From NCBI GenBank assembly GCA_021613535.1, contig CP075493.1, positions 17,918,001-17,982,000 on the forward strand: DNA of 64,000 nucleotides, written 5' to 3'. This stretch comes from Adineta vaga. Its lineage: Eukaryota; Animalia; Rotifera. A program made the position numbers and the translations under genes. The first letter of the stretch is position 1. The number at the start of each line of letters is the position of its first letter. Shown here in pieces: positions 7,249 to 64,000 of the stretch. The notes beneath the pieces were generated by a model that had not been told where the DNA came from, made no database searches, and saw only the letters and a list, made by a program, of their open reading frames with translations.

Positions 7249-7563
7249 TGTTCAGAGAATAGAAATCGAGTTCAAATGCTAATACACTTATACATATATT
7301 CTATATATCAGATCAGATAGGTGCCTTATCTGTTACAGATTGTGACGATTTCTGATAGAAGACTTGCTTGCGCTGATGACATGACGCTTTCCTTTATTTC
7401 TTCTACTCAAGAATCGTCTCGTTTATATACAAAAACACATAGTTATATGCGCAACCAAAAGAGAAAGAACGTAGGCGACAAATATATCGGAGAAAGATAT
7501 AAATAACAGAAAGAGAAGAACCAAGAAAAAGGATAGAACGATATCGTCACAGATATCGTTACA
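7249..7563 (-). mobile_element. Putative solo LTR inserted at the 3' end of the RTE ORF
   Basis: Minus strand reads TGTAACG...GAACA, flanked by TCTG/TCAG (a 4-bp TSD with one mismatch). Removing it restores an RTE-like ...ANICN end. Confidence 0.45.
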
Positions 7564-27728: not shown

Positions 27729-29263
27729 CCCTCGACTGTAGGGAGGGTCATATGAAATAAAATAGGTTGTAAATTTGTTTGTTTGTGGCAAGGTCAAAGG
27801 TCAAACACATATTATCGTACATTTTGGTGGTTTCCACCGGTACTCCTAAGGCGCATTTCGGGGGTATGCATGAGTCATCAAGTCGCGCATCGGTGCCGAA
27901 TGCATTGTCCGTATGCTGGCCGCTTTCCAGGCATCTATGGGTCCCTATATGACCCACTGTGGGCTGGCTGATGAGTCTCCATGCCGCGTACTCTTGTCGC
28001 ACTCCTAGGTGTATATGTGGCGCATTTTGACGGTACCCTTAGGTTTTCCAGTCGCATAATTTCGCGGTCCCCTTGAGTCTATATGTGGGTCATTTTTTGG
28101 GTATCCAAGAATCCTCATGTCACCCACTGTGGGCGGGCTGATGGGTCTCCATGTCGCGTACTATTGTCGCACTCCTAGGTGTATATGTGGCGCATTTTGG
28201 CGATACCTATAGGTGTTCCAGTCGCGCAATTTCGCGGTTTCCGTGGGTGAGGCTGAAGGTGTATGAGGAGCGGGCGAGGGTGGGGGGGGGTGAAAGGTCA
28301 AAAAAACATTTTTTTCTTGAATTTCTAAAACTCACTAAAACGTCGAAAAAGTGATAATAGGGTGGGTGTAGGTCTAGTATGAGTTAGGGGAGAGTAGTGG
28401 GGTGGCGGGTGTGACGGGTGGAAGACCAAATAAACATTTTTTATGAAATATCATTTAGCCCTCAAGTCCTTTAACATGGGGGCGCCCAAGGGTTCGCAAA
28501 TCTTATATATTAGGGGTATCCGGGGATCCTAAAGTGGGATACTATGACGGTATGGGTGAAACTGAAAGGTGTGGGGTAGTGGCGTAACCAGGATTTTATG
28601 GGGTATTAGATCTCTGCTTTAGAGTTTGGGTCCCAGTTGAAACTTATGCAGGATGATCATGGTCACAAATGATGAGTTTCTATCAACTGATTTCTACGAT
28701 CGAAATTTGCTAAAAAAAGTAGCATTTTCCTGCGCCCCACCAGAAAATATTCAATACTGTTAATAGTGTCTTCTTTTTGAGAATGCCACAGGAAGCTACA
28801 AAAAATTTAATCGACAGATTTTAAATTTCATGTTAAAATGCATTTTAACATGAAATTTAAAATCTGTCGATTAAATTTTTTAGCTTCCTGTGGCATTCTC
28901 AAAAAGAAGACACTATTAACAGTATTGAATATTTTCTGGTGGGGCGCAGGAAAATGCTACTTTTTTTAGCAAATTTCGATCGTAGAAATCAGTTGATAGA
29001 AACTCATCATTTGTGACCATGATCATCCTGCATAAGTTTCAACTGGGACCCAAACTCTAAAGCAGAGATCTAATACCCCATAAAATCCTGGTTACGCCAC
29101 TAGTGTGGGGTTTAAGGGGACTGGTCGACGGATGAAACTGAACGATTAATCAGAGTCAGTGATTGACTAAACAAATAAGGAAGCGGGTGTTTTATTTGTT
29201 TGTTTGGGAAGAAAAAAAGCTGAAGCTTCTAGAAAAAGAATATCTCTCCTCCACAGTCGAGGG
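27729..29263. mobile_element. Non-autonomous TIR element with CCC termini (piggyBac-like) and an internal about 178-bp duplication
   Basis: CCCTCGACTGTAGGGAGG / CTCCTCCACAGTCGAGGG. 27950-28065 is repeated at 28125-28240. TSD is degenerate. Confidence 0.55.
28577..29102. mobile_element. hAT-type element that is a spacer-less 526-bp palindrome
   Basis: TIR TAGTGGCGTAACCAGG and perfect 8-bp TSD GTGTGGGG. Axis at 28840/28841 (AAAATG|CATTTT). By eye the arms differ only by a 2-nt indel. Confidence 0.92.
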
Positions 29264-39232: not shown

Positions 39233-40904
39233 GTACCTTACATGTATTTTAATCCCAAAACACATAAGGTAAATAAACAACTCATTGTGCTATTTCAAAT
39301 TTTCAAAAACATTAACATATTTTCTGTTCTGAATAAATAGGATGGTACACCATTTCGACCAATCATGTATACTATTGCTTCGCCTACAACGAACATTTCA
39401 CTTCTGTTAGATCGATTAATTCGACCCATATTTAACGCAAAAGTGCAAAAAACTATCATCATTGATGTCGTTCAACTTATTAAACAACTTCAGAAATATG
39501 CTAATGATGGTCATTTAAAACCAAACACTTTATTTTGTACTTTTGACATTAATAATCTATATACCATGCTACCACAACAAGAATCACTTGAAATTCTTGT
39601 AGAACCTCTTCAAACTTTTGAACAGTCACATATAGGACGAATGGACATTGCAACTATTCGTGAATTAGCCCGTATTGTCATTGAAGAGAATGTTTTCGTC
39701 TACCGCACCAAATATTATCAACAGGTTATCGGCGGTGCAATGGGCTCACCATTTACAATAACTTTAGCAAATATCTTTATGTGGAAATGGGGAAAAGAAT
39801 CCATCTGTAGAGAATTGCGTTTGAATGAAATTTATGGGCGGTATGTGTGATACATGTAAAAGTTTCATACATTTGATATCTGTTTCATAATTCTAGATAT
39901 ATTGACGATATTTTCTTCACATGGAATGATACCAAAGAGAATCTTGAAATATTATTTAAAAAATTAAACATTCATCATCCAAATATTAAATTAGATTATA
40001 AAATTGGTTAAAGTCTTTCATTTCTTGATGTTCATCTTACAAATAATAATGGTATTCTTTCAACATCTGTCTATCGTAAGCCAGCTGCTGAACCTTATGT
40101 GGTACCATTTACTTCTGATCATCCTCGACATATGCTTCGAAATACTATTCAAGCAGCTCTCGTACGCACTTTGCGATATTCATCAACATTCGAAGCATTC
40201 AATACTGAAAGACGCAATATTCGATTGATGCTATTGTACAATGGGCGAGTCAAATAATCTAGAAAAGGGCATACAGAATAAATTCAGAAACTTCTTTTCT
40301 TCAATGTCTATTTAGTTACCCATCCACATACATAGATAAGGAATTTCCCACGTTCTTTGATCGATTCCATCAATACGATTCATGCTCATCAGTTTTACCA
40401 ATGACCAAAGACGAAACTCAATACAATTCCATACATAACGATTTTGCATCAAACCTCACACATAGACAATCACAAATGACTACAGATATAGTATTATCTC
40501 AAATTACTGATAACGATTATGACACGTTAAAACAACTAACGGCTCCAAATCCAACTGTGAAGAGAAAAGATAAAAAAAATCAGCTTAAACAATGTCTGTT
40601 TCTACATCCCATGTATGAAAATCGATTGAAACAACTCAAGGGTGATCTACATAAAATCTATCGAAAACTATTACAGATCCAACTGTCAGTCAAGTTAAAA
40701 TGATTATCGGCAATCGGAATAATCCAAAAGCAAAAACGCAATTCATCCAAAGAAAACGTCCACATGATAAATTCCGCCGACATGATTATCAACCAAGTAT
40801 GTGTTGTCATGTAGCAACTGTATTTGCATAGTTTTTCCCAAAATATAATATTATTATCTCATACAGAACGCACCCGGCAACACCGAACTAAGAAAACAGC
40901 CTGA
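39233..40904 (+). mobile_element. Penelope-like, endonuclease-less (Athena/terminon-type) reverse transcriptase with introns; 5'-truncated pseudogene
   Basis: YFNPKTHK|DGTPFRPI (intron 39269-39340), TFDINNLYT, GGAMGSP, YGR|YIDD (intron 39841-39896), YRKPAAEPYVVPFTSDHP, and C-terminal IIGNRNNP...RKRP. No GIY-YIG domain. Stop near 40009 and frameshift near 40665. Confidence 0.85.
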
Positions 40905-41937: not shown

Positions 41938-42562
41938 CAGTGGCGGATCTAGGATTTTCGAAGGTATTATATTTCACGTTCAGAGCATGGGTCCCATATG
42001 AAACTAATGGTAGATGATATCGGACCTGAATAGATGTTTTTTACACAAAAAAGTTTTTGTTCTGAGTTTGCGACAAAATTTTCGTTTTTTGGATCGCCCC
42101 CCCCCCCAACTTTTTTTTCTGTTGAGCGATAATCTGCTTTTGAGAATCTCACCATAATCTACACCGAATTTCATCGACAGATTTCAATTTTCATCGAAAA
42201 ACATGCTTCCGTTCAAGAGTTATAGCATTTTGAAGTTTTGTTCTGTTTTTTGGGATATTAAAAAAAATTGGAAATTCGATAACTCTTGAACGGAAGCATG
42301 TTTTTCGATGAAAATTGAAATCTGTCGATGAAATTCGGTGTAGATTATGGTGAGATTCTCAAAAGCAGATTATCGCTCAACAGAAAAAAAAGTTGGGGGG
42401 GGGCGATCCAAAAAACGAAAATTTTGTCGCAAACTCAGAACAAAAACTTTTTTGTGTAAAAAACATCTATTCAGGTCCGATATCATCTACCATTAGTTTC
42501 ATATGGGACCCATGCTCTGAACGTGAAATATAATACCTTCGAAAATCCTAGATCCGCCACTG
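41938..42562. mobile_element. hAT-like foldback MITE with about 285-bp near-identical inverted arms
   Basis: TIR CAGTGGCGGATCTAGG; arms 41938-42223 and 42278-42562; no clean TSD. Confidence 0.85.
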
Positions 42563-43110
42563 ATGAGTATCGTTTAGGTATATTTGTACACATTTAGGCT
42601 AAAAGAGATAAAAAATAGTTAATTATAATTCATCTCTGGCTATAAAAATCGCCTGGAACTTTAAAACCATTGAATTTGCTTGGTAACCGCGTACCATCAA
42701 TAAGATAAATTTGTACGCGTAACGCGTTTAAACAAATTACTACATCTAGATATCACTCGTATGCTTCATCTATTACTTATATCACCTAGTATATGTGATA
42801 TAATTTTGAGACCTAACGGACGAACTATAAGATAAAAATCAAAACAGATACTGTTTTTCGTTACTTTTGGGCCACCCTGTATTTTCATAAAATATCAGTT
42901 CCCTCGTTAACAGTCGTTCGAGTGGTCGGAAACTGTTCATCGAAATGACATAACTTCGAGGGCTCGATCTAGGAACTTGATACCGAACGTTAGCTAAAAT
43001 CGACGAGTCGAAATGCCTATCGGATGGTCAGTTGGATATCTTGATTGTAAACATGAATCTTTTATACGCTTTTCTTCTATCACACATCATTTCTTTTTTT
43101 CCTTCTTTAG

Positions 43111-45986
43111 ATACGATGATTGAGCAGCAAATGTCAATGACCGAGGCTAGTATGTTTTGGCTTGATGTTCTTCATGATTACAAGTTCGATCATTCTCTAT
43201 CATTACCATTTGATCGGTATCGTCTTTCGGATGAAAATCGAACTGGTCGCGGAATATCCGTGTCCTTCGACTTCGGTGAAGATCTCTCACATCGCTTCCT
43301 TTGTTATTCATCATCAATGAATATAAAACTGGAACATTTTGTATTTGCCACTTATTATGCTTTCATGTTCAAGCTGACAAATGGTCAGAAGGATTTGTGT
43401 GTTGCAGTTAACATCGATAGTCGATCTAGAGACAAACTCAAAACAATGGTTGGTTTTGTCGAAAATGTTGTTCCATTACGATGTCAGTTAGAACCGCATT
43501 GGTCTTTTCAACACCTGGTTGAACACGTTGATGAAATAATAATAAGTACTATGAAGTATTCTTATTTTCCTCTTCAACGTATTCTTGCTCAACATCCTAA
43601 TGCTTCAAAACCGACATTTCTCGACACATCATTCGAATTCCTGTTAAACGAAAATGGCAAGAATGAAGTAATGATCGGTAATAGTCAAGTTCATGATATG
43701 TCGACGTCGTCGATCAAAATTAGTGAAGATGAAATCATGAGCAAGTTTGATTTTTCTCTTATCATTCAACATGATCTCGAAACTAATCAAATATCATGTA
43801 CAACTCATGGATCAGTTGACTTATTCAATCTTGATACGATCGAGAAGATTACACAACGGTTTCATTCAATATTAGAACAAGTACTACTATTTTCTGAAGA
43901 TCAGATGGATAAACCAATCTATGAGTTATCATTAATATTACCAGATGAGCGAATACTGACGAAATCCCTGAATAATACACAAATACCATTTCTCGATGGC
44001 ACTTGTATTCATCATCTCTTTACTAGTCAAGCGATAAAACATTCACAAAAGTTTGCAGTTGAACTGGATGAACAATCTCTCACATATTCTGAACTTTTAT
44101 ATTCTGTTCAAGTATTATCTTTAACTCTTCTTAATGAATATCATGTGCTTCCAGGTGAAATAGTTTGTCAATATGTTGAGCGAAGTTTGTCAATGGTAAG
44201 TTAATTAAGATAAATAACCATAAATGAGAGTTTGAGATTGAGTTTTGATTAGGTGATTGGTATAATGGCGATAGAAATGAGTGGTGGTGTCTATTGTCCA
44301 TTGTCACCTCGAGATCCACAACATCGTATACAAGCTCTCATAGGACAAATAGGAAGTCGTCTTGTTCTTTCTCACTGGTTAACAAGAAAACAATTTAGTG
44401 ATAATAATCTGACATTTGATATTAGTTCAATATTGGTTAACAATGTTATTTATAGCAGTGTTGATATTGATCAGTTGTCGCACATCATAGTTAAACCAGA
44501 TAATATAGCTTACATCATTTTTACAAGTGGTTCAACTGGAATACCAAAAGCGGTTAGTTGATATTTAGATTATTGGTATCTGAATGAATTTTATATTGTT
44601 TTACAGGTTCGGGTTCGACATAACAATTTTATTGGATTTATGTATTCGTTTACTTATGGTAATGTGTTGAGCGAAAAGGATTCAATCGTTCAGATCGCAC
44701 GTTGTTCTTTTGATGTTCATGTCCGAGATATAATGGGCACTTTTATGATTGGAGGTAGCCTAGTTATGCTTCATCCAAGAGGAATCATGGACTTTAATTA
44801 TCTGGCTCGTGTTATGAATGAGAAGAATATAACTTGTATCTCAACTGTTCCAACTATTATTCATAATTTCTTTACTTTTCTCCAACACATAAATCAACCA
44901 AATCCTTTACAGTGTTTACGAACACTTTGTAGCGGCGGTACGTAACCTTTGTGTAAAATTAACTATTTTGCATATTATTTGACTTCATTTGTAGGTGAGC
45001 CTTGTTCTATAAAACTAATAAATTTAATGTTGAGTACTGTAACACACACTTGTCGTTTATGGAACATGTATGGTCCTGCTGAAACAACAATTGATTGCAC
45101 AAGTCGTCTTTTGCATAACATAATGGAGACTGAAAAGATTCCGATAGGCATGCCTCTTTCAAATTATCAACATCTAGTTTTGACTGAATTCTTACAAAAT
45201 GCCTTTATCAACCAAGAAGGTGAACTGTTTGTGGGAGGAGTAGGTGTTTTCGCTGGTTATCTTGGCCGTGATGACTTAACTTCAAAAGCGCTTGTTGAAA
45301 TAGATGGTCGGCTATACTATCGAACAGGTGATCTTGTTTCAATTGATAACAATGGTCTTTTGTATTATCAAGGAAGAAAAGATCATCAAATCAAATTACA
45401 TGGACAAAGAATTGAATTAGGAGAAATTGAACGATGTTTACTCAACACATCCATATCTGCTTGTGTTGTCATCAAATGGGGTGATGATCACCTAATCGCT
45501 TATGTTCAAAGTTCTAATATTAATGAGAAACAATTACGTGAACATTGTCAATCTCATTTACCATTTCACATGGTTCCATCGATGTTCATTATTCTTGAAC
45601 AGCTACCATTAAATGCTAATGGAAAAATAGATCGAAAACGTCTTCCTTCGCCTAACTTATCGTCATTGACTTCATCGTCACCAAATGCATATAATGCCCC
45701 GCTAAGTTTATTAGAAGAACGTGTGCACGATATTTGGTGTCAAGTTCTGAAATATGATGGACATTATCTGGTAACAAATAAGAGTTTCTTTGCTATTGGA
45801 GGTCATTCTCGTTTATTTATTGAACTTTATCATCGTTATCAAAGTTTGTTTGATTTTGATAGTCGTACATTGTCTATTGTTTCATTTATCCAACAACCAA
45901 CTATTATTGAACATGCAAAATTATTGGAAGTATTCGCAATTGATGGTATACAATCGAAAGAAAAACATGCTTTACATATTAACCAA
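43111..45986 (+). CDS. NRPS module 1: C-terminal half of a condensation domain, adenylation domain and thiolation domain
   Basis: LSLPFDRYR...YPLQ-type C-domain motifs; A3 YIIFTSGSTGIPKA; A10 NGKIDRK; PCP FFAIGGHS (Ser at 45807-45809). Three short introns. Confidence 0.9.
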
Positions 45987-48900
45987 AGTCAAAAATTCGA
46001 AACATTTCCTGCTACAGAAATACAACAAGCATACCTTGTAGGACGAGGAGGTTTTATTGAACTTGGCCATGTTTCTTGTTTTCTGTATGAAGAATATGAT
46101 TTGCCATCAACATTTGATATTGAACAATTAGAAAAGGCATGGAATCAAGTAATTCAACGTCATGAAACGTTACGTATTATCTTTCCATCCAATACAGAAC
46201 AAAAAATCTTAGAAACAGTGCCTTATTACACAATACCTATATTGGATTGGAATGATATTCTATCGCCAGATGAATTATTAATAGAACGACGAGAGCAATT
46301 ATCACATCAAGTTCGACCAGCAGATCAATGGCCACTTTTTGATATTCAAATGACTCGTTTTAATATTGATAACGAATATTATATACGTTTGCATATTGGC
46401 TTTGATCTTCTCATATTGGATTTATGGAGTTTAAACTTAATTATGAATGAATGGAGTCAATTATATCTTATTCCAAATATTCCTTTGACAGTTTTAAATC
46501 TTTCTTATCGAGATTATATTTTACGTGAACAACAAATTAAAACCACGATCAATTATCAGAATGATAAACAATACTGGATGGATCGTTTAAATTCTTTTCC
46601 ATTAGGTCCTAATTTGCCATTACAATGTTTACCAAATGAGATACATACACAAAGACATTGTAGTTCATCTTTAGTATTAGGGCAATCAATATGGCAGAAA
46701 TTAAAACAACGTATTATTGATCATCACTTGACACCAGCCAGTTTTTTAACATCTATTTATGCCATAGTATTATCTAAATGGAGTGAAAACAAACATTTTG
46801 CTTTGAATTTACCAATTTTTAATCGATCTCCTATTCATCCACAAATTAATGACATAGCGGGAGATTTTACAACAATTCTACCATTGGAAATCAATTTAAA
46901 TGAGCGAATTAATTTTGATCAATTTTTTGAAACTGTTCAAAAACAAATATGGAGTGATCTTGAACATAGATCTTATAATGGTGTATCATTTATTCGTGAA
47001 GTGATGCAAGTACATAAAACAAGAGAAATAGCCTTTCCATTTGTTTTCACATGTGGAATAGATCTACGTGATACGAATGAAAACGACATTCAAGAAAATT
47101 TCATTTTTGATCACTTCTTTGTGTATTCGATTAGTCAAACACCACAAGTTTTTCTCGATTACATAGTATTTGAAAAAGATGAACAATTATTAACCAATTG
47201 GGTCTATGTAGAAAATTTATTTCCATCAGAAATGATCACTGACATACATCATACATATATTGACTTACTTCATCAATTGGCTTTGTGCGATGATTTGTGG
47301 TACAAACCTCTTTCGATTTCAGTACCAATTAAACAGCAAGAACGAAGAGTCAATTTTAATCAGACACAATGGGAATCAGGGGTTAAAGAACAATTACTTC
47401 ATTTATCCGTCATCGAACAAGCTCTACAAACACCTGAAGCTTGGGCTATACTTTCTTCAAGAGAAAACTTAACATATGAACAGCTAATGAATCGTGTTTA
47501 TTCATTGGCATATCATCTACAACAGCAAGGTATACAATCCAATCAATTAATTGCTATTCTCATGGAAAAAGGTTGGGAACAAATCGTGGCTTGTTTATCA
47601 ATTTTAATCTCAGGTGCTGCTTATTTACCTTTGGATATTGATTCATCATATGATCGTCTTTCTTCATTAATTCAAGAAACTAATGTTAAAATTATTCTTA
47701 CACAATCACATTGTCATCATACGTTTACACATGTAACAACTATTGCAGTTGACACATACTCTAATAATAATTATCCTAAACCATTTCCTTTCAAACAACA
47801 ATCATCAACTGATTTAGCTTATGTTATGTATACATCTGGTTCTACAGGTAAACCCAAAGGTGTTATGATTAGTCATCAAGCTATTTTAAATACTATTCAA
47901 GATATCAATTTAAGATTAGATATTTCTTCAAATGATAAAATCTTTGCATTATCACATCTCAATTTTGATTTATCAGTTTATGATATATTTGGAATATTAA
48001 TTGGTGGTGGAACTATAGTAATTCCAAATCATGAAGATTATAAAAATCCTCAACATTGGTATGATATGATAATTAAACATCAGGTTACTATATGGAATAG
48101 TGTTCCAATGTTAATGCAAATGCTCGTTGAACATCTCAAACATACAAATAACCATAATCAATTACGACATATCTTATTAAGTGGTGATTGGATGCCGTTA
48201 TCTTTACCTGAATCAATACAAAAAACATTTGGTGAACAATTAGCAATCACTAGTTTAGGCGGTGCAACAGAAGCATCTATTTGGTCAATTGCCTATACTC
48301 TGCCAAAAGAAATACCACGAGAATGGAAATCAATTCCTTATGGAATGCCATTACGAAATCAGCAATATTATATTTATGATATTCATCTCGATGATTGTCC
48401 TGAATGGGCCACTGGTGAATTGTATATTGGCGGTGAAGGTTTAGCTAATGGCTATTGGAATGATGAAGAAAAAACACAATCAAGTTTCATCATTCATCCA
48501 GTGACTAATAAACGTCTTTATCGAACTGGCGATTATGGTCGATTTGTACCTGATGGATATATAGAATTTATGGGACGAAAAGATTTTCAAGTCAAAGTTC
48601 ATGGTCATCGTATTGAACTTGGTGAAATCGAATATCATCTACAACAACATTCTGACATTCATCAGGCTGTTGTTACTGTTGATAAATCATCACAACGCTT
48701 GATAGGATATATTATGCCAAAGAAATATTCTGCCATTGATGGTGATTATAATGAAGCAGAAATTTCAATTACCGATCCCATTGAACGTACTAATTTCAAA
48801 CTTGCGAGACATGGAATACGACATGAATATCAAGGTGAAAAGAGTTATTTGTTGATAAAACCGAAGATAACAGAAGCACTAATCAATACTTACTACACAA

Positions 48901-51900
48901 GCAAAAGTTACCGGCAATTCACAAATGGAATCGTTGAAAAATCTACTATTGAACATTTATTAAACAAATGCTACACTAGGAACAATACTGAACAACTGCC
49001 TCAACAAGATTTTGATTTGAATGTTCTTAGTCAGTTGTTATCGTTGTTGACACCAATCAATGTTTCGAATCAACCATTACCAAAATATCGGTATGCATCA
49101 GCGGGAAACCTTTATCCTGTTCAAGTATATGTGGAACTTCATGCATCTATCGATCATCTTTCTTCTGGTCTTTATTATCACAACCCAGATAAACATACTC
49201 TAGATTTAGTTAGTGTTTGTATGGACGACCATAGTAAGAATATACGATTACGTCTCATCGGTCGATCGACAGCAATCGCTCCTCTCTTTGGACGCGCATT
49301 AGGTTCACAATTATGTGTATTAGAGTCAGGATATATGTTGGGATTACTTCAACAAGAAGCATCGAAATTTGGCTATTCATTACCCATCATTGCTGATAAT
49401 GATGCTAGAAACTATGGAAATTTTCTGTTCGATGAATATGACACTCATTATTCATTTGAGATTTCATCTGAAAAGGAATGTTCATCTGATCGTGTAAACA
49501 ACAATGATTTTCAATGTGTTGTGTATATAAAATCTGTGGAATATGGAAGACATGAATGGTTTGTTTACGAGAAAGAGAAACTCATTCTCACTCCAGTTGA
49601 TATATCGACAGAAATCATCGAACAACAAACACCATTATTGTTTGATGATGATAATGATGATGACACAAAAGCCATATTTTCTGACTGTCAATGTGCCATC
49701 TTCTTTACTGGACAGTCTGAGCATAGACTGGAGACTGGTGTGATATCACATTTATTGATGAATCATGGTTTAGAAATCAACATTGGCATGTGTCCGATCG
49801 AAACTCGATCCAATTTGCCCGTATCAATCAATAAGACTTTAGATGCTGTTATGACAAAATGTAAACTCATTGACAAAAGTACAGTATTACACACATTACT
49901 GATTGGAAAAATCACTGATAAACAAATGTATGAACGAGTTATGTCAACATCGAAACCAATGTCAGATTGGAGTAAAACATTGAGAATGTATCTGCGTTCA
50001 AAACTTCCAACATATATGATACCATCACATTTTATAATTGTTTCAACATTTCCATTGAGTCCAAATGGTAAAATCGATCGAAAATCATTACCAGAAATAT
50101 TTCCTTTGGTGATGCAGAAAGATGATATGTGCGTAGCACCAAGTACTGATCTAGAAAAGAGAACCGTGAGTATTTGGCAAAAACTACTATATTCGCACCA
50201 GTCGCCGACATTTATCGATGAGAGAACATCTTTAAATGATCATGGAGCGTCTCATTTGTCGAATAGAGAAGAAACAGTTCCTGATATATCTATGACAAGT
50301 AGTTTCTTTGAACTCGGTGGCAACTCTCTCCTTCTTATTCAACTCTATCAGCATTATCAAGCACTGTTTCATTTTGATAATGAAACACAAACTGTTCGAC
50401 CATTCTTCGAGTATGACACTGTAACTGATCATGCGAAATTGATAGAAGGATTAATGAGAACTAATATACCCTCGAAGCAATGGCATACATTACACATCAG
50501 TCAAGGTATAATGTTTTTATCGTTTTTTTTCTACAGGTAAAATAGTTTTCTGTTTAAACTTTAGGTATTACATCGTTTGCACAAGAACGTATTTTTCTTG
50601 ATGAACAAGTTCGCTTATCGAATCAAATAGCTATTTACAATGAATTAGTTGCCTTTCGATTGGTTAGAGGTTCTCTATCGACAGATAGATTATTGCATGC
50701 ACTTCGATTAGTTTTAAACAAACAGACAGTATTACGTACATCTCTCAGTTTTGCTAGCGAAAGTGGTACTATTCAACAATGCATAACTGACAATCATAAC
50801 ATGTTCATGTTAAACGACGCACAAACATTCGAAAATGAAAGCGAACTTAAAGAATTGATATATCGAGCTCGTATCGATCCCAATTTACTCGATTTGACGA
50901 CTGGTCGTGTTTTTCATTGTCAAGTACTTCGACAAAACAAGTTAATCAATCATAGTAATGGAGATAATTCCATTTCAAACTCTGATGTTCTCGTGCTTGC
51001 TTTTCATCATGTCGCATATGATTGGTCTTCTTATCAAATCTTTATCAATGATCTTACCATGGCTTATAATAATCGAACAACAACAACGTTATCAGATGTG
51101 CAATCATTGCAATATATCGATTATGCTGTCCACGAACATCTACTAGATATGAGAGAATCAAAGGACTTTTGGCATACGAAACTTCAAGAACACAATTTAG
51201 AACATTCTCTCTCCTTACCATTCGATCGACATCGTGCTATTTATGGTGAACGATCTGACTTAGGTTCAGTAGTCGAATTCTCTTTCGATAACGACATTTT
51301 GACATCGTTTTTACGTTATACTTTTATTCATCAAGTTACGATATTTCAACTAAGTTTGGCCACATTTTATGTATTTCTGTTCAAATTAACACATGGTCAG
51401 ACTGATCTATGCATTTCCTCTCTGAATGTCAATCGATATCGAAATGAATTACAAAATATGATCGGAATGTTTGTTGCAACATTACCATACTGTATACAAC
51501 TTGATTGTCATTGGTCATTTGACAAACTTATTAAACATGTTCAAACTGAATGTTTAGCCATTTTAGACCATTCTCATTATCCTCTTCAACACATTCTTGC
51601 TGATTTATGTCTTAATCATTCAAACGTTCCTTTTCTTAAATCGGTCTTTAACTTTGTCATTACGTCGTCAGACACGGATCAGCTACTGCTCGATAGAGCA
51701 AGATTTGAGCAAGTCTCATTTCAAAAATCCCTCGACGTGGCAAAGTTTGATTTTGACCTGTTATTTGATTACAAGGGAACATCAAATGATGGTAAACTAT
51801 CATGTCGTTTTGTTTGTTCACGAGATCTGTTTGACGAGACAACAGTTATCAGCATTGCACGTAGATTTCAACATCTTTTATCACAACTTTTCTCTTCAAA

Positions 51901-54900
51901 GTCCACAGATGCCGAACTTAAGGAATCTTTCACGTCTGTGAATAAACTCTCTCTTATTCTGCCAGAAGAAGCCGAAGAACTCCAAAGAATAGTTTTTCAA
52001 AGATTACCGGATGTTATCAGTGAAGGTATGTATGGTTGCCTGTTACTTAATGTAAATTTACGACTAAAAATAGCGCTCAGTTTAAAACGCCATAGTATTG
52101 ACTGCAGAAAAGTTGATTAACGAGAAAGGAATGATTCATGGTTCTAACTTTCACACACTGAAAATTATTTGGCGTGATGAATAATCAGAAAAACCGTTTT
52201 GGCGTCAGCTAGAGACGGTTTTTCGCTTTTCTGCCTATTCAAAATTGCTTCGAGAACGTTGTTAGTAGAAAAATTTCCAAAGTCTATCTGTCCGAATGCA
52301 AAAACAAGAAAGAATTATCGAGTTTCAGTTCGATCAGAAAACCTGAAATCTATCTTTGAGAACCATAAGTGTTCGAAACAGGGTTTATTCAAATCAACCT
52401 GCTCGATGCTTTGTAGTTCTGGAAGATAGATTTGATATCTTTCAGCCGGACTAAAACCTCATAGGGCTGTTTTTCTATTGCATCCAGATAGATCGGTTTT
52501 GTGAGTTTAATTAATGAAAAACGTTCTTGAGACAGTTTGAAGCACGTTGAAAATCTCATACCTATTTTTGGCCAACGTTGAAACGTTTCCCAGTTCTTTA
52601 TTGCATGAGATCTTTTCCATTGTAGACAAAAAAGAGATCCTCAAGATCGTTAGATGTTCAGCTACTTTGGAACTTGACAGTTTATGTTTTGAAAGGAGTT
52701 TGTTCGAAACTTCTGCACGTGATAATGCAAGCGTGTCGACAGTGTAAAAAATAGGTGTAAAGTGACCAACCCTTGAAAAGGATTTATTCATTTTATAAAC
52801 CCTTCGATATACCCTTTCAGTTCCATAAACCCTCTCATATACCTTCAGAGATATAATGAATTTCAAATATCCTTTTTCTGTTTATTAACTTCATCAACGC
52901 TGTACAAAAGGATTTAGTAATCTTCCATTTTCATTATACCATGGGTTGTTAAACTCTTATTTAAAGCGTTGATGAAGTTAATAAACAGAAAAAGGATATA
53001 TGAGAGTGCAGTAAATCACATACCTTTCGAGGGTAGATGGGAAAAAAAGGAGACGAGAGGGTTTATGGAACTGAAAGGGTATATCGAAGGGTTTATAAGG
53101 TGAATAAACCATTTTCAAAGATTGGTTATTCTACACTTATGCTGTATACTGTAGAAAAGTGCGCCGAAGATTTCTCTTTCTGAATATACGTAGATTTTTG
53201 CAAACCGACCGGAATTTCACGAACATATTGATAGAAAAACATTACCTCCTACTATCGAGTTTTGCGAAAATTTTTACAAATTTTATAGTTTCGAAAATCT
53301 GAAAAAGAGAGGAGCGTAACTGTTTTATCAGCATATTAGATGGTGTGGTGCCATCAGGTTTATTAATGAACCTTGAAGTGAACAACGAAGCTCTTAATAC
53401 ACAGATCCTTTGCTTTCAACAGTCATAGGAAAAAAAAAAAAAACAAAACATATAAGAACATAGAAAAAACTAACAAAAAATTAATGATTGGTTTGATTCA
53501 TTGTTGATGTTGTGAATCGAGCAGAAGAACAATATTTTGTTCGGTTACTTCATCTTTCGTTTGTCGACTGCTAACAAATGCTCGTTTAGTGAGATCTGTA
53601 ACATATGAACGAAGATATAGAATGTTGGTCAACTTGTGGATGCAGGTGGCTGAAGTAAAATGAGGTAGATGGAGAGCTGCTCTAAGTGCTTTGTTCTGGA
53701 TAATCTGTAAACTATTCCAAATTTGATCTCCGCCATTGAGACAGATTGAAGAACCATATGTCAGAACCGGTCTTATAAGTAAGATGGTGTCAGCCCACTG
53801 TGACTATCACGTGTTGTAAATACGTTCAACTAAATATATTGAAAGTGTGCCTTTTGACTGTGTTTTAGAATATGAATATAAAACTCATTTCTAAATTTAT
53901 TTATCTTTTTTCATAGCATATGGTTTCTAGTCAGAAAAATGTGAACTAGTCTCTCGAGATTCTATACGATAATTAATATTTTTTTGTTTTCAAGGTCTAA
54001 ATCGGGACTAGCTTTTGTCCGAACAGAGCTTTTGTAGATCGTTTCTGGGCTGGAAAAAGTGGGATTTATTGTCGCGCAACAACCACTGTTTCCATGGTGC
54101 TTTAGAATATGTATCCAAAAATTCTGAAAAAAATTGGGTCTCTTTAAAAAATCTGTTCGGACGAAGACTGCGCAATAAGACTAGCTGTAACCTAACACCG
54201 TCCCGGCCTCGCTACTAAGAATCACAACAGAGTTATATCGATTCCAAGATATAAGTCACAAATCAGCTGAAACTCTACTCTAACGTGTTGTGGAGGGTAG
54301 AACGTTTTTATACAAAGCGCATCTCACCAGGATAAGTCATCCCCAGAGATTTCAGCTAAAACCAATGGTCTAAAGCGAGAAATCATTTTTGAGAAGGCGT
54401 TCGAAAGTAAAATCGTACATGAAATAGTATTATTTGGGTCGTTGAAGCACGTCTCAATGAGAGAGGCGATGTCACTAAAACCATAAAAAATTCGAGCAAA
54501 AAGTCGTACAAGAATAACATTTTTGAAAATACCTTCATATGTTATCGAACGTAACAACACATATAGAATTTCAAGTGAAATATGCTCAAAGAGTTCGAAA
54601 TCTTGCTTGAGAGTTTAGTCATACTCATACGATGTTTACGCCACAGGAGTCATCTGATACACATTTCCATCAATAAATGTAGCTATCTATGAGCACTGAA
54701 AATCCAAATAAATCTTTTCAACAGCCACTTTCCAACAGTCCCAATGATCGATGATACACTAAGATAAGCCGCCATATGCTCTACTACGAATAAATTGTAG
54801 CGCAGTAGTACATAATTGTAACTATACTACAATCCATAGCTACGAAAAACGACACCGCAGTTCGGCGTAACTATCGACCTTTCAAAGTAACTGTGCCATT

Positions 54901-57900
54901 TACGATGCAGCGATCAGACTTCTGCGTCTTTTGCCCTACGCTCAATGAAATTCTTTCAGCACTAATGAGTAACTATGGATGTCGCTTTACAAGTCAGTGC
55001 AGGTATAACAAACATACAGCAGCTATCAACAATCATAGCAAAAAACAAACCCCGTCCGTAACTGCGACTCTACCCCGAGAGCACCATTGACATCAACTTT
55101 TTCCGCTGCCCTAACCCTTTCTACTTCAGCGAATCTGTGCTGTGATTCAAATGAAACAACTTTTTGCGCGATGTTCTGATTTCGAATATCCGAAGTACCA
55201 CTAGTAGTACATGAATATAGAAACAATTAATAAGAAAGAATGAAGGCTGACAATACGTACAAACAAAAAAACCGACAAAGATCACAAAAAAATATGCCAC
55301 GACGCATGAGGTACACATCTCTACCATACCTCGATTCTATTTGTTTCTTCTAGCACCGGCTTCCTTTGCTCAAGCTCGTATCTGGCTCGATGAACGACTT
55401 CGATTCGATCCAGACCATCCACAAGTGGCTATCTACAATATGCCTTTCGTCTATCGTCTTTCTCCACACGACACTCTCTCGATTCAACAACTTCATCATG
55501 CTCTACAACTTGTTGTCAACAAACATCCATCACTTCATACAGCACTCGTCTTTGATTCTGACAAACATCAACTCATTCAAAGAATTCTTTCTCACAAAGA
55601 TAACAACAACGACAACAGAACTCTCTTCTCCTTTACTCAAAGTACTTATGAAACAGATGAAGAACTCCATGATATCTTACATGATGAACGAAGAAACACG
55701 CAACATTTCGATCTCGATCATGGTCTTGTCTTTCGATGTCATCTCGTACATTACAAAGAGATTATCCCATCGAATGATCTTCTTTCTCATCAACATCTTC
55801 TCATCTTTAGTTTTCATCATGCTTTGTTTGATTTTCTATCGATGAACATCTTTCTTCATGATCTCAATCAAGCATATACCACAAGTCAATTATCCACTGA
55901 TGATGACTATACTACTCTTCGTTATTTCGATTGTATGTTATCCTAGCTTCTCATGTGTACTTTTCTTCTCTACCACATTTTCTTCTCTATTATATTCAGA
56001 TGCTGCCATCGAACAACAACTGTCAATGACTGGTGCACAGATGTTCTGGCAGGATACACTTCATGGTTGTCAACTCGATCAACCTCTTTCCTTACCCTAT
56101 GATCGACATCGTCTTTCGAATGAACATCGAACTGGTCGTGGAACATCGATTTCCTTCGATCTTGGTCAACATCTGTCACATGACCTTGTCACTTATGCAT
56201 CATCAAATCATATCGAACTAGAACATCTAGCTCTTGCAACCTACTATCTCTTCTTATTCAAACTGACCAATGGAGAACAAGATCTATGTATTGGAATGAA
56301 TACACATGGTCGATATCGAAATGAACTTCACTCAATCATTGGCATGTTTGTCAATGCTATACCAGTACGATGTCAACTAGATTCTTGTTGGTCTTTTGCT
56401 CAACTACTTGAACATATTCGATCGATGATAGTCAACTGTAGAAAATATTCATATTATCCACTTCAACGTATTCTCTCTCAATATCCTCATCTCTCACATC
56501 CTGCATTTCTCGATACATCATTCGAATTTATCTCATCATCATCATTATCGATGGGAAAAGATGATCGAAATGAGATTATGATTGGTGATAGTCGACTTTC
56601 TCTCCTATCTTTCGTTACGAATATCAATGAAGATGAAGTGATGAACAAGTTTGATTTCATTCTCAGGATTGATCATCATCTGATGACAAATGAACTGTCA
56701 TGCACCCTTTCTGCATCCAACGATTTGTTCAATGTAGAAACTATCTTCCAGATGGCACAAAGATTTCACACAGTAGTCCAACAACTATTCATATCTGTTG
56801 ATACAAGCATGAGGAAACTACTTTCTGAACAATCATTGATGTTGAACAATGAAAGATTACTCATACAATCAATCAATCATACACAAACATCTTTTCCTCC
56901 CGTGAAGTGTATTCATCATGAGTTTGTATGTCAAGTGATAAGACATCCACAGAAACTAGCTGTTGAACTCGATGATCAATCGTTGACATATGCTGAACTG
57001 TTGCACTATGTGCAACTATTATCGACACGTCTTCTAAGTGATTAAACATCCTTCCAGGTGAAGTGATTTGTCAATGTGTGGAGAGAAGCATATCAATGGT
57101 AAGTAGTTGATCAAAGACATGTGAATGTGAAGTAGAGATTGTTGTTGTTGTTGTTGTGGATGCATAGGTGATTGGAATGATGGCCATCGAAATGGTAGGT
57201 GGTGTTTATTGTCCATTATCACCTCGAGATCCTCAACATAGACTTCATGCACTCCTACAACAAACACAAGCTCGTCTAGTTCTTGTTCATTGGTTAACAG
57301 CAGACAAGTTTCACGATGCAATGGCTTCACTTGATATTAATATCATCTCCTTTGCGAATAATATGCGTCAGGCTGTTGATGTTCATCGTTGGGATGATGT
57401 CATAGTTACTCCCAGTCATGTGGCCTATATCATTTTCACTAGTGGTTCAACTGGAACACCTAAGGCGGTTTGTTGAGTCTCACTTCAGTTGTTACTATGT
57501 ATGAGTTTGCCTTTCGGTTTGTTGTTGTAGGCGCAGTTTCAACATCATCATTTCATGAGTTATATGCACACTTGGAGGTTCGCTGCAGCATATGATGGGA
57601 ATGACATGGCTATACAAGTGGCACGATGTTCATTCGATATTCATGTTCAAGAAATACTTGGTATCTTGACATGCGGAGCAACAGTGGTGATGCTTCATCC
57701 TCAAGGAACTCTAGATTTAGAATATCTGTCACACATCATGCATGAGAAACAAATCACATACCTGCACGCTGTACCTAGTTTAATTCAGAGTCTGTTCCCT
57801 TTTCTCGATCGCTCTCAAAGTTCGCATGCGGTAACGTATCTTCGATCAGTGTGTAGTATTGGTGAGTGATTGAAGAACAGAGTTGACTACTATGCTGATA

Positions 57901-60900
57901 TTCTGAACTAATCCCCTTCTAGGTGAACCATTCCCAGCCAAACAAATCGATCTAATCCGAAATGCTTGTATACAAAAGTGTACTGTATGTAATCTCTATG
58001 GTCCAGCAGAAATAACCATTGGTTGTACCTTGTTTCATGTTGACGTCACATCAAAAGCGGTTGTTATCCCGCTCGGCAAACCACTCCCTAGTTACAGATG
58101 TCTAGTTTTGGATCATTCCATACAACCTGTTGCATTGTATCAACAAGGTGAACTGTGCGTAGGAGGCGTAGGTGTGTTTGTTGGATATCTTGGACGAGAT
58201 GATCTCACAGCCAAGGCACTCATCGAAATTGATGGTGAACTATTCTATCGAACAGGTGACCTCGTTCGAATGGATCATCAAGGTTTTCTTCATTACATTG
58301 GTCGACAAGATCATCAAGTCAAACTTCGAGGACAACGCATTGAACTTGGTGAAATCGAACGATGCCTGCTCAGCATCTCTACCATCTCTGCATGTGTTGT
58401 CATCAAATGGAATGGTGATCATCTCGTGGCTTATGTTCAATGTTCTCATAACATACACGAACAGCAACTGAGAGAACATTGTCAATCTCATCTTCCACCA
58501 CATATGATTCCATCGTTCTTCGTCATCCTCGAACAACTACCTCTGAATGTCAATGGAAAGATCGATCGAAAACGGCTTCCTTCACCCGATGTCTCGCATC
58601 TGTCTTCATCAGCACATCATACGAATGACGACAATAATGAATTCTCACAACCAACCAATGACATCGAACAGATCATTCATGACATGTGGTGTGATATTCT
58701 TCATCAAAAACAGATCTCCATCAGCACCAGTCTTTTCACCATCGGTGGTCATTCTCTCCTAGTCATGCAACTCTTTCATCGATACAAGATCGACTTTCAT
58801 CTAGAATCGAGTTCTTCCTTTTCCATCTCTACTTTTTTTCAACATCCAACCATCAAAGAACATGCTCATCTCATTCATCAGACTCGCAACATCCACACCG
58901 AAGATGTCGATCATCATCAATGGCTCCCACTACATGTCACTCGAGGTAGTTTACATCATGTATTTGTCTTCATCATCCACTCCCTTTTCTGTTTGTGTTC
59001 TAGCAAGAGCATCCTATGCACAGGAACGTATCTTCTTAGATGAACACATTCGTTTCTCCTCATCCACAAATACCACCCATTATCGTATTCATCATAATAT
59101 CTATGTCATTCCATTATTGTATCGTCTCTCATCTTCTCATTCTCATCTTTCAATCTCAAGACTACGTTATGCACTGCATAGTCTCATCATCAGACACAAC
59201 ACTCTTCGAACAGCACTCTACCTAGATGATGTCGATGGTAGTATTGTACAAGAATGCTTCGATCAATCTCGCATTAGCAATGATATGATATCATGTCGAT
59301 TTATTGTTCTTGATCTTCACAACAATAACGATAAGGATTGCGAGCGACAGGAGATTGTCGAGGATATACTCAATCAAGTGGATCTCTTTGATCTATCTAA
59401 AGGACATGTCATCAATTGTCATCTTCTTCTCGGACATCATCCTTCTCCAGAGGATGATGATTTGTTGAATGAAAACGATTGGATCTTATTTACTCTCCAT
59501 CATGCAGCATTTGATGGAGCATCCACATCGATCTTTCTTCGTGATCTTGCTCTTGCTTATGATCAAGATGAGAACTTCTTGGTTGAGACTAATGCATTGC
59601 AATACATCGACTATTCTGTACATGAACATTGCATGGATATGACATTATCTCGACAATTCTGGCATGATCAACTGCAAGGATATGATCTGCAAAGTCGACT
59701 AGCATTGCCGGTTGATCGACATCGTGCTTCAGCTGATCAGCGCTCTGGACTGGCGTCATCTATTCAAGTGACACTCGATGATGACATATGTACATCCTTT
59801 CTTCACTATGCATCATCACATCATCTCACTCTCTTTCAACTTGGCTTAGCTACATTCTATGCATTTCTCTTTCGACTAACTCATGGTCACAGTGATCTAT
59901 GTGTATCTTCGATTAATGCTAATCGATATCGAAATGAACTTGTCAATATGATAGGCATGTTTGTGTCAACATTACCATATCGTCTTCACATCGATGATCA
60001 TCAATGGTCCTTTGGTGAACTTGTCCGACATGTGCAAGAGAAATGTGTATCTATTCTAGAACATTCTCATTATCCATTACAAGAACTCTTCTCTCACTTT
60101 CATGTCAATCAATCGAATGTTGGATTTCTCGAAACGGTGTTTGATCTAATACATGTGTCTCCTGAACAAACACAGTTATCTTTGGGTGAAACAAACTTAG
60201 AACAAATATCATCAGACATATCATATCGAATGGCGAAATTTGATATCATGTTCACATTGGTTTATGATCGAACATGGCATGATGAGCGATTATCATGCAG
60301 TTTTGTCTGTTCACAAGATTTGTTTGATCAGGCATCCGTTACACTTCTAAGTCAAAGACTAGTACACTTCTATCGGCAGCTGTTCTTATCTGATGGCGGT
60401 GGTGGTAGAATGGAGAGTTGGTCATTACCTTTATGTGATCTAGTTCTCATTCTACCGGAAGAAGCTAGAGAAATAGAAGACATTGTGTTTTGTCCACAAC
60501 TACATGTGATAGATGAAGGTATGTGTGATTGTTCGATGACTTTTGTTCAAATATGCACATGGATATCGGAGAAGATGCGAACTGTCTGTAGAGAAGTGTG
60601 CGAATATGTAAGAATCAACATGATACTTGAGAATGACATCTGATAAATGCTAAGAAAACGATGATATTAATAGATTATTTGTAGAAACTTTGCTGTCTAG
60701 CGGTTTAGCAGTAATTGGACTATTTCCTCAGTTGAGTGTTGTAGAGTGACGAGCAGTTTTTACTTCTGAAACATTTTCTTTCGTATTAAGTGTAATTCAT
60801 GAGAGTTTCTCTTGTCCTTTCTACTTATGCACATAAGTATAGGCTAAACATATTTCACAAGTGTATTCGTAAGAGGAAGACTGTCTGAAATGTTTCTGTC

Positions 60901-63900
60901 GTCGGCTACAAGATGCTATGCGTTTGGATGAGTGTCCCTCAGTGTGAATGGGGTTACACGCATGGAATAGACCCAGTTCGTATTTTGATGCGTTCTAGCA
61001 GGGAATTCGATTCGTTTTGCGCTTCTCTTCATGCATACAGAGGAGAACTAGTCGGTAGTTTTATCTACCTTCCTGGCTTTGTTTTCTGGTAAGAAGCGGA
61101 AATGATTTTGATCAGAGACAGAACTACTTATTATAAGATTACAAAAAACTACACATTAATCGCAAAACCATGATAAAAATAGTCATCTACAAACGGTACA
61201 GTGTGATTCGATGAAAGCTGGTATTATATAGTGAACTGAAATAAGAAGACAGGCCAGAGACTATCTGCGTAGTGTGATGGATTAAAAGAGCGAATTGAAA
61301 AACAAAAGAAGGATATCGAGCACCAAGGATGAAAAGCCACATCTATATAGGTGATAGCAACAAGTATCTTAATATACACATTTCAGTGTAAGATGTGTTG
61401 ATCATAAGTCATATGATTGTTTTGTTTCCTTGCTATCCTCAACTAAATACTTCATTGTTCCACACGCGCATTTTCCTGGATCTTTGTCTTTGTTTTCTTT
61501 CTTTCTCATTTCTATGTACACCAGTACAAACACACCTGTTCACCTCCAATCGACAATCCCTCTTCCACTTGAGCGACTAGTCTAAGACATGACATCGAAC
61601 CGACAGAACATACAACATTAGAATAAAAACTTCCATCACGGAAGTTCCATGTGGCAGCTTCCTACCAACCAATCATACAATGAAAACACAAGCGAAATTC
61701 AGTTAGATACCGTCTGATTCGACACATCAGCATGAAAATATTGTGAAGTAAACTGAGAAGCAAGTAGAATTGAACGAGATCACAGTGGGTTTCATTCTTG
61801 AAAATCAGAATCGTCGGCAACACAAATGCCAAGGAATAATTTATCGGGAACAAATTTATTGACCGGTTAAACAGATGAAATGATCAGTAATAAAATGGAT
61901 AAATGATCAGTTCGAAGTTTGAATGATCGGTGCTTAGAATAGCAGTAAATAATATGAAAATGATCAGTCTATAATATGAACCATCCGTAAAGACATCATA
62001 TTTATAACAGTAAAAAGTAGCAATTTGACAAGTAAAAAATCCAAATTTGATTAGTAAATAATGCATGTTGTACCAACAGAAAAAAAAGATCGATCTGTAA
62101 GACACACCCGAGCACGAGACGAAGAATCTAATTGAAGCCGTCTAAAATTCGAATCACTGCAGCATCAAAGCTGGTTTAGCTTTTGCTGGCCGGCCACTCT
62201 TTCGTTTTTCACCGATCGGCACTGTCTTGGCTGGTGATGGTGGTCTGCAGTACTTCAAGCGAATAGCCATCCCAACAACGTGCTTGCAAACATAGTTTTT
62301 CAAAAAGGCCGGGCAGTTGCATTTTGATTTCTTCCAGTCTGTATCATTCGGCATTTCTAAACACCATATATCATAGGATTTCTTGAACTGATTAAAGGTA
62401 GTCCATTTTCTATTGATATATTTATTTACATCAGTTTGTGTAATATCTTGTATATCACGAGCTGGTATATAATGTTTTTGAACCATCATTCGGATAGAAG
62501 ATTACATCTGTTGATGACTTGTCCATTGATATGAAGAAGTCCATAGCTTTAAACTTATCGTCGCTTCTATGACAAAAACTTTTGCATTTATTGAAGTGGA
62601 ATCACGTTCTATTGACCAGTTGTGAACAATCCTTGAAGCTATTGCTAAAAATCTCGATAAGACATAACGTTCTTGGAAAGTCCCTTCATCTTTTATTGTC
62701 TTGTTGGCTGTCTCCAGGATTTTGTTCGTAATCGGTGTATATAACTGGATACCTTCGTACCAACCGTTATTGGATTCAATCCATTCTTTGTCGAAATACG
62801 ACAGATTTTCTTGTTTCTGGTACGTCCTCCTCTACTAAATCACTTTCGTATGAAGCACCTCGTGCAGCTTCCATCGGTTTTACTTGTTAGCACCGAGATG
62901 GACGTGAAAGAAAGGATAGAAATAACGAATATGATGGCTGGATTTATAGTTGAATCTCGCGATTACAGAGAAATAAAAAAAAGTAGCCATCAGTCACTGT
63001 ACGACTTATTGCAATTTCTACAGTGATCCTTGCATATAATCTCCTAATAATGTATTTTATTTACTGATTATCAAATTAATTAACTATACAATCTCTTGAA
63101 CTACTGTTCCTTTATATTGTTTACTGACAGTTCAACTTCTTTACTGATCATTCATCCAATTAACTGATTTTGAAATATTTCATCTCACTGATCATACCAT
63201 ATTTTCTACTGATAAACTAAATCCATGCCTAATTTAACGGGATCGAGCCGCAACAAGTTTGCTTCGATTGAAACATGAATAAGGTTCAGACAAAAAAGAA
63301 TCATGGTCCCGTCAGATCTGAATCCATCGATATCATAAACCCATACCATTGTAGTATCCACTTAACTGTATTTAACTATACGATGAATGTTGGATCAAAG
63401 GCGACAGACAATCATTTTTGCAGTGCGATCGACCATGATCATGCTTCTTCTTCTTCTTCTCATTTGTTCTTTTTCATCGTCGCCATCGTCGTCGTAGCAC
63501 CAGCATCCTTTGCTCAAGCTCGTATCTGGCTCGATGAACGACTTCGATTCGATCCAGACCATCCACAAGTGGCTATCTACAATATGCCTTTCGTCTATCG
63601 TCTTTCTCCACACGACACTCTCTCGATTCAACAACTTCATCATGCTCTACAACTTGTTGTCAACAAACATCCATCACTTCATACAGCACTCGTCTTTGAT
63701 TCTGACAAACATCAACTCATTCAAAGAATTCTTTCTCACAAAGATAACAACAACGACAACAGAACTCTCTTCTCCTTTACTCAAAGTACTTATGAAACAG
63801 ATGAAGAACTCCATGATATCTTACATGATGAACGAAGAAACACGCAACATTTCGATCTCGATCATGGTCTTGTCTTTCGATGTCATCTCGTACATTACAA

Positions 63901-64000
63901 AGAGATTATCCCATCGAATGATCTTCTTTCTCATCAACATCTTCTCATCTTTAGTTTTCATCATGCTTTGTTTGATTTTCTATCGATGAACATCTTTCTT
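43111..64000 (+). CDS. Spliced multimodular non-ribosomal peptide synthetase: (half C)-A-T-Cy-A(Cys)-Ox-T-C-C-A-T-C-C...; incomplete at both ends, one frameshift
   Basis: Exons 43111-44195, 44253-44552, 44607-44937, 44995-50505, 50565-52025, 55354-55932, 56000-57098, 57168-57467, 57531-57861, 57923-58945, 59004-60518 and 63498->64000, all with GT-AG introns. Core motifs TSGSTG.PK, YGPAE, YRTGD, QIKLHGQRIELGEIE, NGKIDR, GG(H/N)S and HHxxxD. Confidence 0.93.
45987..50505 (+). CDS. NRPS module 2: heterocyclisation (Cy) domain, Cys-type A domain with embedded FMN oxidase-like insert, and T domain
   Basis: FPATEIQQAYLVGR, DLLILD (DxxxxD, 46404-46421), GDFTT, SISQTPQVFLD. A-domain code residues D-L-Y-N-L-S-L-I-W-K. 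Insert with PKYRYASAGNLYPVQVY and GLYYHNP. PCP FFELGGNS. Confidence 0.9.
50565..58945 (+). CDS. NRPS module 3: tandem C-C, A and T (frameshift at about 57043)
   Basis: C1 SFAQERIFLDE...FHHVAYD; C2 SFAQARIWLDE...FHHALFD; A YIIFTSGSTGTPKA and YRTGD; T LFTIGGHS. Confidence 0.88.
53450..53785 (-). mobile_element. 3' fragment of a Jockey/I-group-like LINE in an NRPS intron
   Basis: Minus strand translates LIRPVLTYGSSICL...LQIIQNKALRAALHLP, a typical post-RT LINE C-terminus. Confidence 0.7.
59004..64000 (+). CDS. NRPS module 4 start: C1 (HHAAFDG) and the first exon of C2; continues beyond the window
   Basis: SYAQERIFLDE...LHHAAFDGAS; intron 60519-63497; exon from 63498 APASFAQARIW...HHALFD. Confidence 0.88.
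61833..63224 (-). mobile_element. Internally deleted MULE with a SWIM zinc-finger transposase fragment, in an NRPS intron
   Basis: Minus strand YFDKEW...GWYEG...TNKILETANKTIK and CNCPAFLKNYVCKH (SWIM). ACTGATCA subterminal motifs in opposite orientation at both ends; imperfect GG...CC termini. Confidence 0.75.

Follow-up and report, generated by a model that had tools for sequence, protein, structure and literature searches.

A heterocyclization module with an altered embedded oxidase in a bdelloid rotifer peptide synthetase: a candidate thiazoline former from a multi-copy family

Layout and cyclizing domains of the module

The window considered here is a 64,000-nucleotide stretch of the bdelloid rotifer Adineta vaga (assembly GCA_021613535.1, contig CP075493.1, positions 17,918,001 to 17,982,000, forward strand), in which a nonribosomal peptide synthetase (NRPS) gene carries a module of heterocyclization (Cy), adenylation (A), oxidase (Ox) and carrier (T) domains. 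The entire Cy-A-Ox-T module (45999-50450) lies in one frame, which is free of stops at 44946-50540 and has the exon 44995-50505 as its coding part; along this exon follow the end of a first adenylation domain (A1), its carrier T1, Cy, the core of a second adenylation domain (A2), an insert of 405 residues, the A9-A10 part of A2 and the carrier T2. The module is genuine and is part of a bdelloid-wide family. An earlier note on this DNA had likened the layout to bacterial cysteine-cyclizing modules, a comparison borne out by structure-database matches and trees, while its focus on a single module missed the family.

The motifs from which that note recognized Cy (DxxxxD, GDFT and SQTPQVxLD) are all present in frame: FPATEIQQAYLVGR at aa 354, DLLILD at 487, GDFTT at 639, PFVFTC at 698 and SQTPQVFLD at 730, with DLLILD (aa 487-492) standing in place of HHxxxDG. 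When the region was compared with the PDB, the eight best of 28 matches (E 2e-73 to 2e-45) were all Cy domains, from HMWP2, BmdB, EpoB, PchE and 6lta (which we take to be FmoA3); since the ninth match follows only at 1.5e-13, chance resemblance is excluded. By sequence, the domain classifies as Cy and not as another condensation (C) subtype, and the ordinary-C outcome raised in the earlier note was not seen. A catalytic Thr/Asp dyad (T1830/D1862 in HMWP2) and a helper Gln have been defined for Cy domains (accessible text of PMC9547227), and the dyad corresponds in the window to Thr702 and Asp738, both kept. Both DxxxxD aspartates are found in 43/43 family Cy rows and the dyad is intact in 33 of the 43. 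Condensation and cyclodehydration by the window Cy are predicted from these intact motifs.

The A2 pocket residues (aa 1008-1113) read DLYNLSLIW, all nine identical to those of cysteine-loading BmdB, and the pocket region has five PDB matches at E<=1e-20 (BmdB, PchE, 6lta), every one from an NRPS with a Cy module. The same code occurs in 40/44 family A domains. The pocket reading DLYNLSLIWK in the earlier note was confirmed, the domain groups with cysteine A domains, and cysteine activation by A2 is predicted from the pocket. Downstream, the A10 motif NGKID of A2 lies at aa 1707 and the carrier motif GGNS of T2 at aa 1791.

The embedded oxidase and its altered residues

The Ox insert sits between A8 and A9, where 467 aa separate GHRIE from LPTYMIP, and carries the YASAGNLYP motif at aa 1384. 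Of the earlier description of a nitroreductase/McbC-like insert between A8 and A10, the fold and the site (A8-A9) stand, whereas the insert proves nearer to BmdC, ThcOx and 3eo7 than to McbC. The suggested profile check stayed under the curated cut-offs (TIGR03605, 43.2 vs 78.4; PF00881, 15.6 vs 23.5), and Ox and T2 alike have no Pfam call at E<=0.001; support comes instead from the match to BmdC (E 3.8e-7) and from an AlphaFold model built on a 35-row alignment (pLDDT 80, pTM 0.85). The closest structure to this model is 3eo7 (Z 20.0, root-mean-square deviation 3.7, 303 residues aligned), and the structures of BmdC, ThcOx and McbC align only with model residues up to 236. On the model, we read the insert as a pseudodimer of nitroreductase fold.

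Several known systems resemble parts of this arrangement. EpoB-type modules of myxobacteria and cyanobacteria share the domain order and the placement of Ox between A8 and A9, but only about half of the 405-aa insert has a counterpart in their Ox, and they are bacterial and intronless. IndC has no Cy domain and oxidizes glutamine. An Ox insert at A8-A9 that is larger and built of two halves is shared with IndC, compared by its published description, and with Anabaena 3eo7, compared by structure and the best fold match. For IndC, the accessible text of PMC8795117 gives a proposal that Ox is pseudodimeric and that the insert keeps the synthetase monomeric. Module 2 of BmdB together with BmdC (PMC8795117) likewise has Cy-A(Cys)-T in second position, the same pocket and a nitroreductase-type Ox; however, BmdC is a separate homodimer, whereas the window Ox lies embedded in doubled form, with substitutions at the Arg145, Tyr260 and Gly294 positions, and the window line, unlike the BmdB system, continues through many C-C-A-T modules.

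These changed positions bear directly on the likely product. In BmdC, flavin mononucleotide (FMN) is bound by Arg145, Arg146, Ser147, Arg149 and Gly294, with Arg145 contacting the FMN phosphate and Gly294 lying at FMN N5, and Tyr260 is the likely base (accessible text of PMC8795117). With positions transferred from BmdC by way of an aligned bacterial Ox, the window Ox has Ser1319 (nt 48900) at Arg145, Phe1448 (nt 49287) at the active-site Tyr260 and Glu1619 (nt 49800) at Gly294, so that SKSYR and GMCPIE replace the FMN motif R-R/K-S-x-R and the N5 Gly. The window Ox still has its SAG loop and, within the RKSYR motif, the Lys, Ser and Arg. All three changed codons lie within a DNA contig (48605-52822) that matches with 0 other letters, and they are thus not assembly errors. 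Among 51 bdelloid-type Ox rows, the window included and the near-copies P0243 and P0245 dropped beforehand, the three positions hold Arg in 49, Tyr in 47 and Gly in 45, and all nine checked positions are kept in 23. The Ox of P0243 also has Phe for Tyr, and the SAG loop is altered in many other family members.

The residue changes are plain in the DNA, and from them a loss of oxidase activity is predicted. The thiazole product put forward in the earlier note accordingly sits poorly with this copy, and a thiazoline is likelier, because the window Ox is without three residues that BmdC uses. It is improbable that the module is nonetheless active throughout and yields a thiazole, or that an intact paralogous Ox oxidizes the ring in trans. 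Such activity would accord with the retained Lys, Ser, Arg and SAG loop, with a fold predicted to be intact and with the 23/51 intact family Ox domains that could act in trans; yet BmdC is proposed to use Tyr260 as its general base and binds the FMN phosphate through Arg145, all bacterial rows in which the motif was located have the Tyr, and a partner Ox presumably could not complete the site, because a pseudodimer closes its own.

Bdelloid relatives and origin

A total of 43 bdelloid-type Cy domains were gathered: 22 from Adineta steineri, 5 from A. vaga, 2 from A. ricciae, 2 from Rotaria, 11 unnamed and that of the window. Those from named Adineta and Rotaria (n=31) are 53-80% identical to the window Cy, against <=43% for bacteria, and all 43 form one clade (FastTree 1.0) in a 131-row tree that took in 88/276 bacterial-type rows. 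In a 60-row A tree, the bdelloid cysteine A domains nest among bacterial cysteine A domains (SH-aLRT 99), with the backbone A domains on a separate long branch. Trees of Cy, of A and of Cy-A-Ox alike recover a single bdelloid clade.

That the Cy-A-Ox exon could be a bacterial contaminant or an assembly chimera is suggested by its bacterial type and by 4.5 kb of sequence with no introns. This reading was rejected, and we give it next to no credence, on the strength of the bdelloid Cy relatives and of contigs from independent runs (4 of 24 listed sequencing runs were examined for DNA) that bridge T1-Cy (45620-46721) and Ox-T2-intron-C (48605-52822) with 0 other letters; the GC content of the block (0.31-0.35) also matches that of the flanking domains. 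Spliceosomal introns, host-contiguous DNA and bdelloid paralogues together mark the gene as bdelloid-encoded, and the bacterial origin, bdelloid host and spliceosomal introns proposed earlier are upheld by the Cy and A trees, the paralogues and the GT-AG introns.

Among 1.84 billion representatives, the top bacterial match to the whole insert (37% identity, E 7.5e-47) is P0308, the NRPS WP_158996978.1 of Pigmentibacter ruber, a member of the Silvanigrellales. In Cy-A-Ox trees it is sister to the bdelloid clade under both LG+G4 (support 100, 34 rows) and LG+C20 (support 99, 20 rows), sister here meaning the closest sampled relative and not the donor; its composition was flagged as odd, and other AT-biased rows stay outside the bdelloid clade. 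This protein shares the Cy-A-Ox-T order and the doubled Ox, with 37% identity over the insert, and differs in being short and bacterial, in keeping RKSYR, Tyr and Gly, and in a start that we read as acyl-activating-like. A previous candidate sister, P0161, was displaced once P0308 joined these trees, and a genome scan with P0161 returned generic NRPSs and named no donor. One metagenome scan for bdelloid loci found no relative, and all the matches listed by a second were bacterial-looking loci at <=38% identity. T2 gives local scores of 134 to T1 and 175 to the T2 of P0145, while two bacterial T domains reach 92 and 84, and by these scores T2 resembles rotifer backbone carriers more than bacterial ones; the imported piece was therefore likely Cy-A-Ox, placed on an existing backbone. 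It seems likely, from the sequences compared, that bdelloids acquired this block a single time, independently of the backbone, with duplication and variation following.

Variation within the family is considerable. Some unnamed members lack the insert (P0111 and P0006 have 79-105 aa between A8 and A9), and the paralogues P0123, P0008 and P0009 have an intact Ox. P0123, P0002 and P0131 have two Cy-A-Ox modules each; in P0123, an A. vaga model, neither Ox departs from the nine checked positions, an arrangement that would permit two thiazoles. Methyltransferase Pfam hits occur in four Cy-bearing NRPSs of A. steineri (P0137, P0139, P0147, P0252), and PF00856 in P0018, P0057 and P0139. In the bacterial P0314, P0336 and P0347, the same doubled Ox lies inside a first A domain with no Cy ahead, and so is put to a different use.

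Parts of this family have been recorded before. Nowell 2024 (PMC11258130), Suring 2023 (PMC10531068) and GenBank entry ACD54728.1 share, in their accessible parts, the family, the intron pattern and the tandem C domains, and ACD54728.1 already carries a Cy-A-Ox-T module. File 4 of PMC11258130, as accessible, lists for A. vaga six 'heterocyclization' matches with two coding sequences so labelled, 'Nitro_FMN' in four regions and 'Cyc_NRPS' in one; its region1.9, marked '3 frameshifts', with 13,683 aa and no Ox noted, has a 5592-nt 'Heterocyclization' coding sequence whose neighbors match the window open reading frames (ORFs) in length and spacing. The accessible main text of that paper contains neither heterocycl, thiazol nor oxidase, and its readable supplements contain no 'thiazol'; the accessible text and supplement of PMC10531068 do not discuss Cy domains, nor does its main text take up thiazoles; and in the accessible parts of both papers we saw neither a survey of the family nor any treatment of a donor lineage, pseudodimer or variation in Ox. 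Accessible parts of PMC3846280, PMC10510592, PMC10212144 and PMC11869996 hold nothing on bdelloid Cy or thiazole, and no title or abstract on rotifer heterocyclization or Cy transfer to eukaryotes was found in the literature covered, subscription papers lying outside it. No bdelloid NRPS product is identified in the papers examined, in the parts accessible. The novelty supposed in the earlier note thus falls for the Cy and nitroreductase labels and stands for their discussion: the family is labelled in a supplementary table and GenBank, but is, as far as this literature reaches, undescribed.

State of the window copy and its likely product

The gene has 11 GT-AG introns, and the exon edges named in the earlier note (44937/44995 and 50505/50565) are edges of such introns. 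From ATG 43116, the frame is open for 3435 codons up to a one-base slip at 57044, where all four DNA runs (4/4) carry an extra T at full depth; the frameshift is thereby ruled out as proof of a pseudogene, and contigs around it may be collapsed, the region being multi-copy. One contig of run X16 (record 4; 477 nt, 0 other letters) joins 44936 to 44994 and so splices out the 57-nt intron ahead of the Cy exon, the junction proposed earlier, whereas a DNA contig retains it. In four possible-RNA runs (4 of 24), none of the contig pieces listed closely matches Cy, A2 or Ox. The A. vaga Cy-type model g48794, not mappable to the window locus, shows zero expression in four conditions.

Starter exons are missing at the 5' end, so that the intact assembly line envisaged earlier is not supported. 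Six N-terminal queries (tblastn, E<=0.5) had no match in window 1-43110, though all matched downstream, and no NRPS exon was found in the 43 kb upstream of the gene, whose first surviving exon begins at an internal splice acceptor.

In the proposed mechanism, A1-T1 would serve as the starting module, with translation from ATG 43116; A2, its pocket identical to that of BmdB, would activate cysteine and load T2; and Cy would condense cysteine with the preceding residue and cyclodehydrate it to a thiazoline. Within a single chain, the Ox pseudodimer would supply one FMN site, as proposed for IndC; without the Arg for the FMN phosphate, the catalytic Tyr and the Gly at N5, it would probably fail to convert the ring to a thiazole. 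The chain would then pass to the repeated C-C-A-T modules, giving a peptide with an N-terminal aminoacyl-thiazoline, a layout presumably comparable to the start of bacitracin; the earlier note proposed a metallophore, antifungal or toxin role for such a product.

A thiazoline, and not a thiazole, is thus the likeliest working product of this copy, at a probability of roughly 55%. Several observations weigh against it. The spliced X16 contig has a depth of only 3, and that it derives from RNA is a guess. P0005, P0017 and P0145 have two C domains ahead of A1-T1-Cy; of these, the window gene has lost the starter C entirely and the second down to its latter half. The Arg after the carrier Ser of T1 occurs in 1/59 family T motifs, and the helper Gln of Cy is Ile740, though BmdB also lacks this Gln (accessible text of PMC9547227). 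In plain counts of departures from conserved columns, the window ranks 5/36 for Ox, 11/43 for Cy and 13/44 for A2; so counted, the Ox is little more decayed than the other domains, a pattern as compatible with general decay as with a loss confined to Ox. The Gly294 contact, moreover, may run through the backbone, so that Glu could be tolerated.

The absent 5' exons and the odd T1 suggest that the window gene may be decaying. A serious rival, though the less likely reading, is that a genuine module stands here in a 5'-shortened, decaying duplicate that makes no product and leaves the chemistry to intact paralogues. The empty upstream 43 kb, the internal acceptor, the Leu-to-Arg change in T1, the three Ox changes, the upstream transposon remnants and the '3 frameshifts' of the matching published cluster are consistent with it; by contrast, the frame stays open over 3435 codons and six introns, 4/4 runs speak against the window's single slip, a correctly spliced contig exists, and the catalytic motifs of Cy and A2 are all retained. 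Thiazoline formation by this copy is accordingly preferred.

Features of the window are collected in Table 1. No Rfam match was found in window 30000-64000. Inverted repeats that are long and nearly perfect, and that probably represent non-autonomous DNA transposons, lie at 41938-42562, directly upstream of the shortened gene start, and at 9081-9691 and 28577-29102. Further along the backbone, tandem C pairs (50565-56900 and 59004-64000) show HHVAYDW or HHAAFDG and then HHALFDF, their members separated by 3 kb introns; the C-C-A-T pattern recurs in relatives, and the first C of each pair may be epimerase-like or inactive. Positions 55351-55650 and 63495-63794 are 99% identical over 300 nt at a spacing of 8144 nt, and reads cover 55.5-60.4 kb several times more deeply than the Cy module, which together point to recent tandem amplification of modules.

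Table 1. Coordinates of features within the window
Feature	Position	Strand	Remark
hAT dimerization domain (transposon remnant)	4858-6157
Reverse transcriptase (transposon remnant)	7443-8723
Reverse transcriptase-like stretch (transposon remnant)	39341-40703		no Pfam match
First surviving exon: C domain (second half) and backbone A1 (start)	43111-44195	+	acceptor AG 43109-43110, in-frame ATG 43116
A1 exons	44196-44994	+	GT-AG introns 44196-44252, 44553-44606, 44938-44994
T1 carrier	45696-45935	+	PF00550; GGHS, then Arg where Leu expected
Cy domain	45999-47315	+	D487xxxxD492, Thr702, Asp738, Ile740 at helper Gln position
A2 core	47406-48731	+	cysteine-type pocket DLYNLSLIW(K)
Embedded oxidase insert	48771-49985	+	between A8 and A9; putative pseudodimeric nitroreductase fold
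A2 subdomain end	49986-50105	+	A9 (LPTYMIP), A10 (NGKIDR)
T2 carrier	50151-50450	+	GGNS
Intron at module end	50506-50564	+	GT-AG
First member of tandem C pair	50565-52025	+	HHVAYDW
3.3 kb intron	52026-55353	+	GT-AG; repeat remnants
Second C, A3, T3 and next C	55354-60518	+	HHALFDF; six exons
SWIM-finger ORF (transposon remnant)	62154-62831		within last intron
Start of next repeated module	63498-64000	+	runs past window end

Where azole rings turn up in animal extracts, symbionts or diet are usually named as the source. A Cy-A(Cys)-Ox family that is conserved and multi-copy in two bdelloid genera predicts, instead, azole-ring synthesis by the animal itself. It also gives a mass-spectrometric handle on bdelloid NRPS products, namely sulfur, a ring at residue 2 and a pair 2 Da apart; the window copy would be a poor first target, and the intact P0123, P0008 and P0009 better ones. 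More broadly, we see even odds that bdelloids make thiazole or thiazoline peptides by way of one ancient Cy-A(Cys)-Ox transfer, from relatives of freshwater Silvanigrellales, that joined a separately acquired backbone, with the oxidase since switched on, off or out so that paralogues yield aromatic or reduced rings. Two separate transfers would thereby have been assembled into one biosynthetic line within an animal genome.

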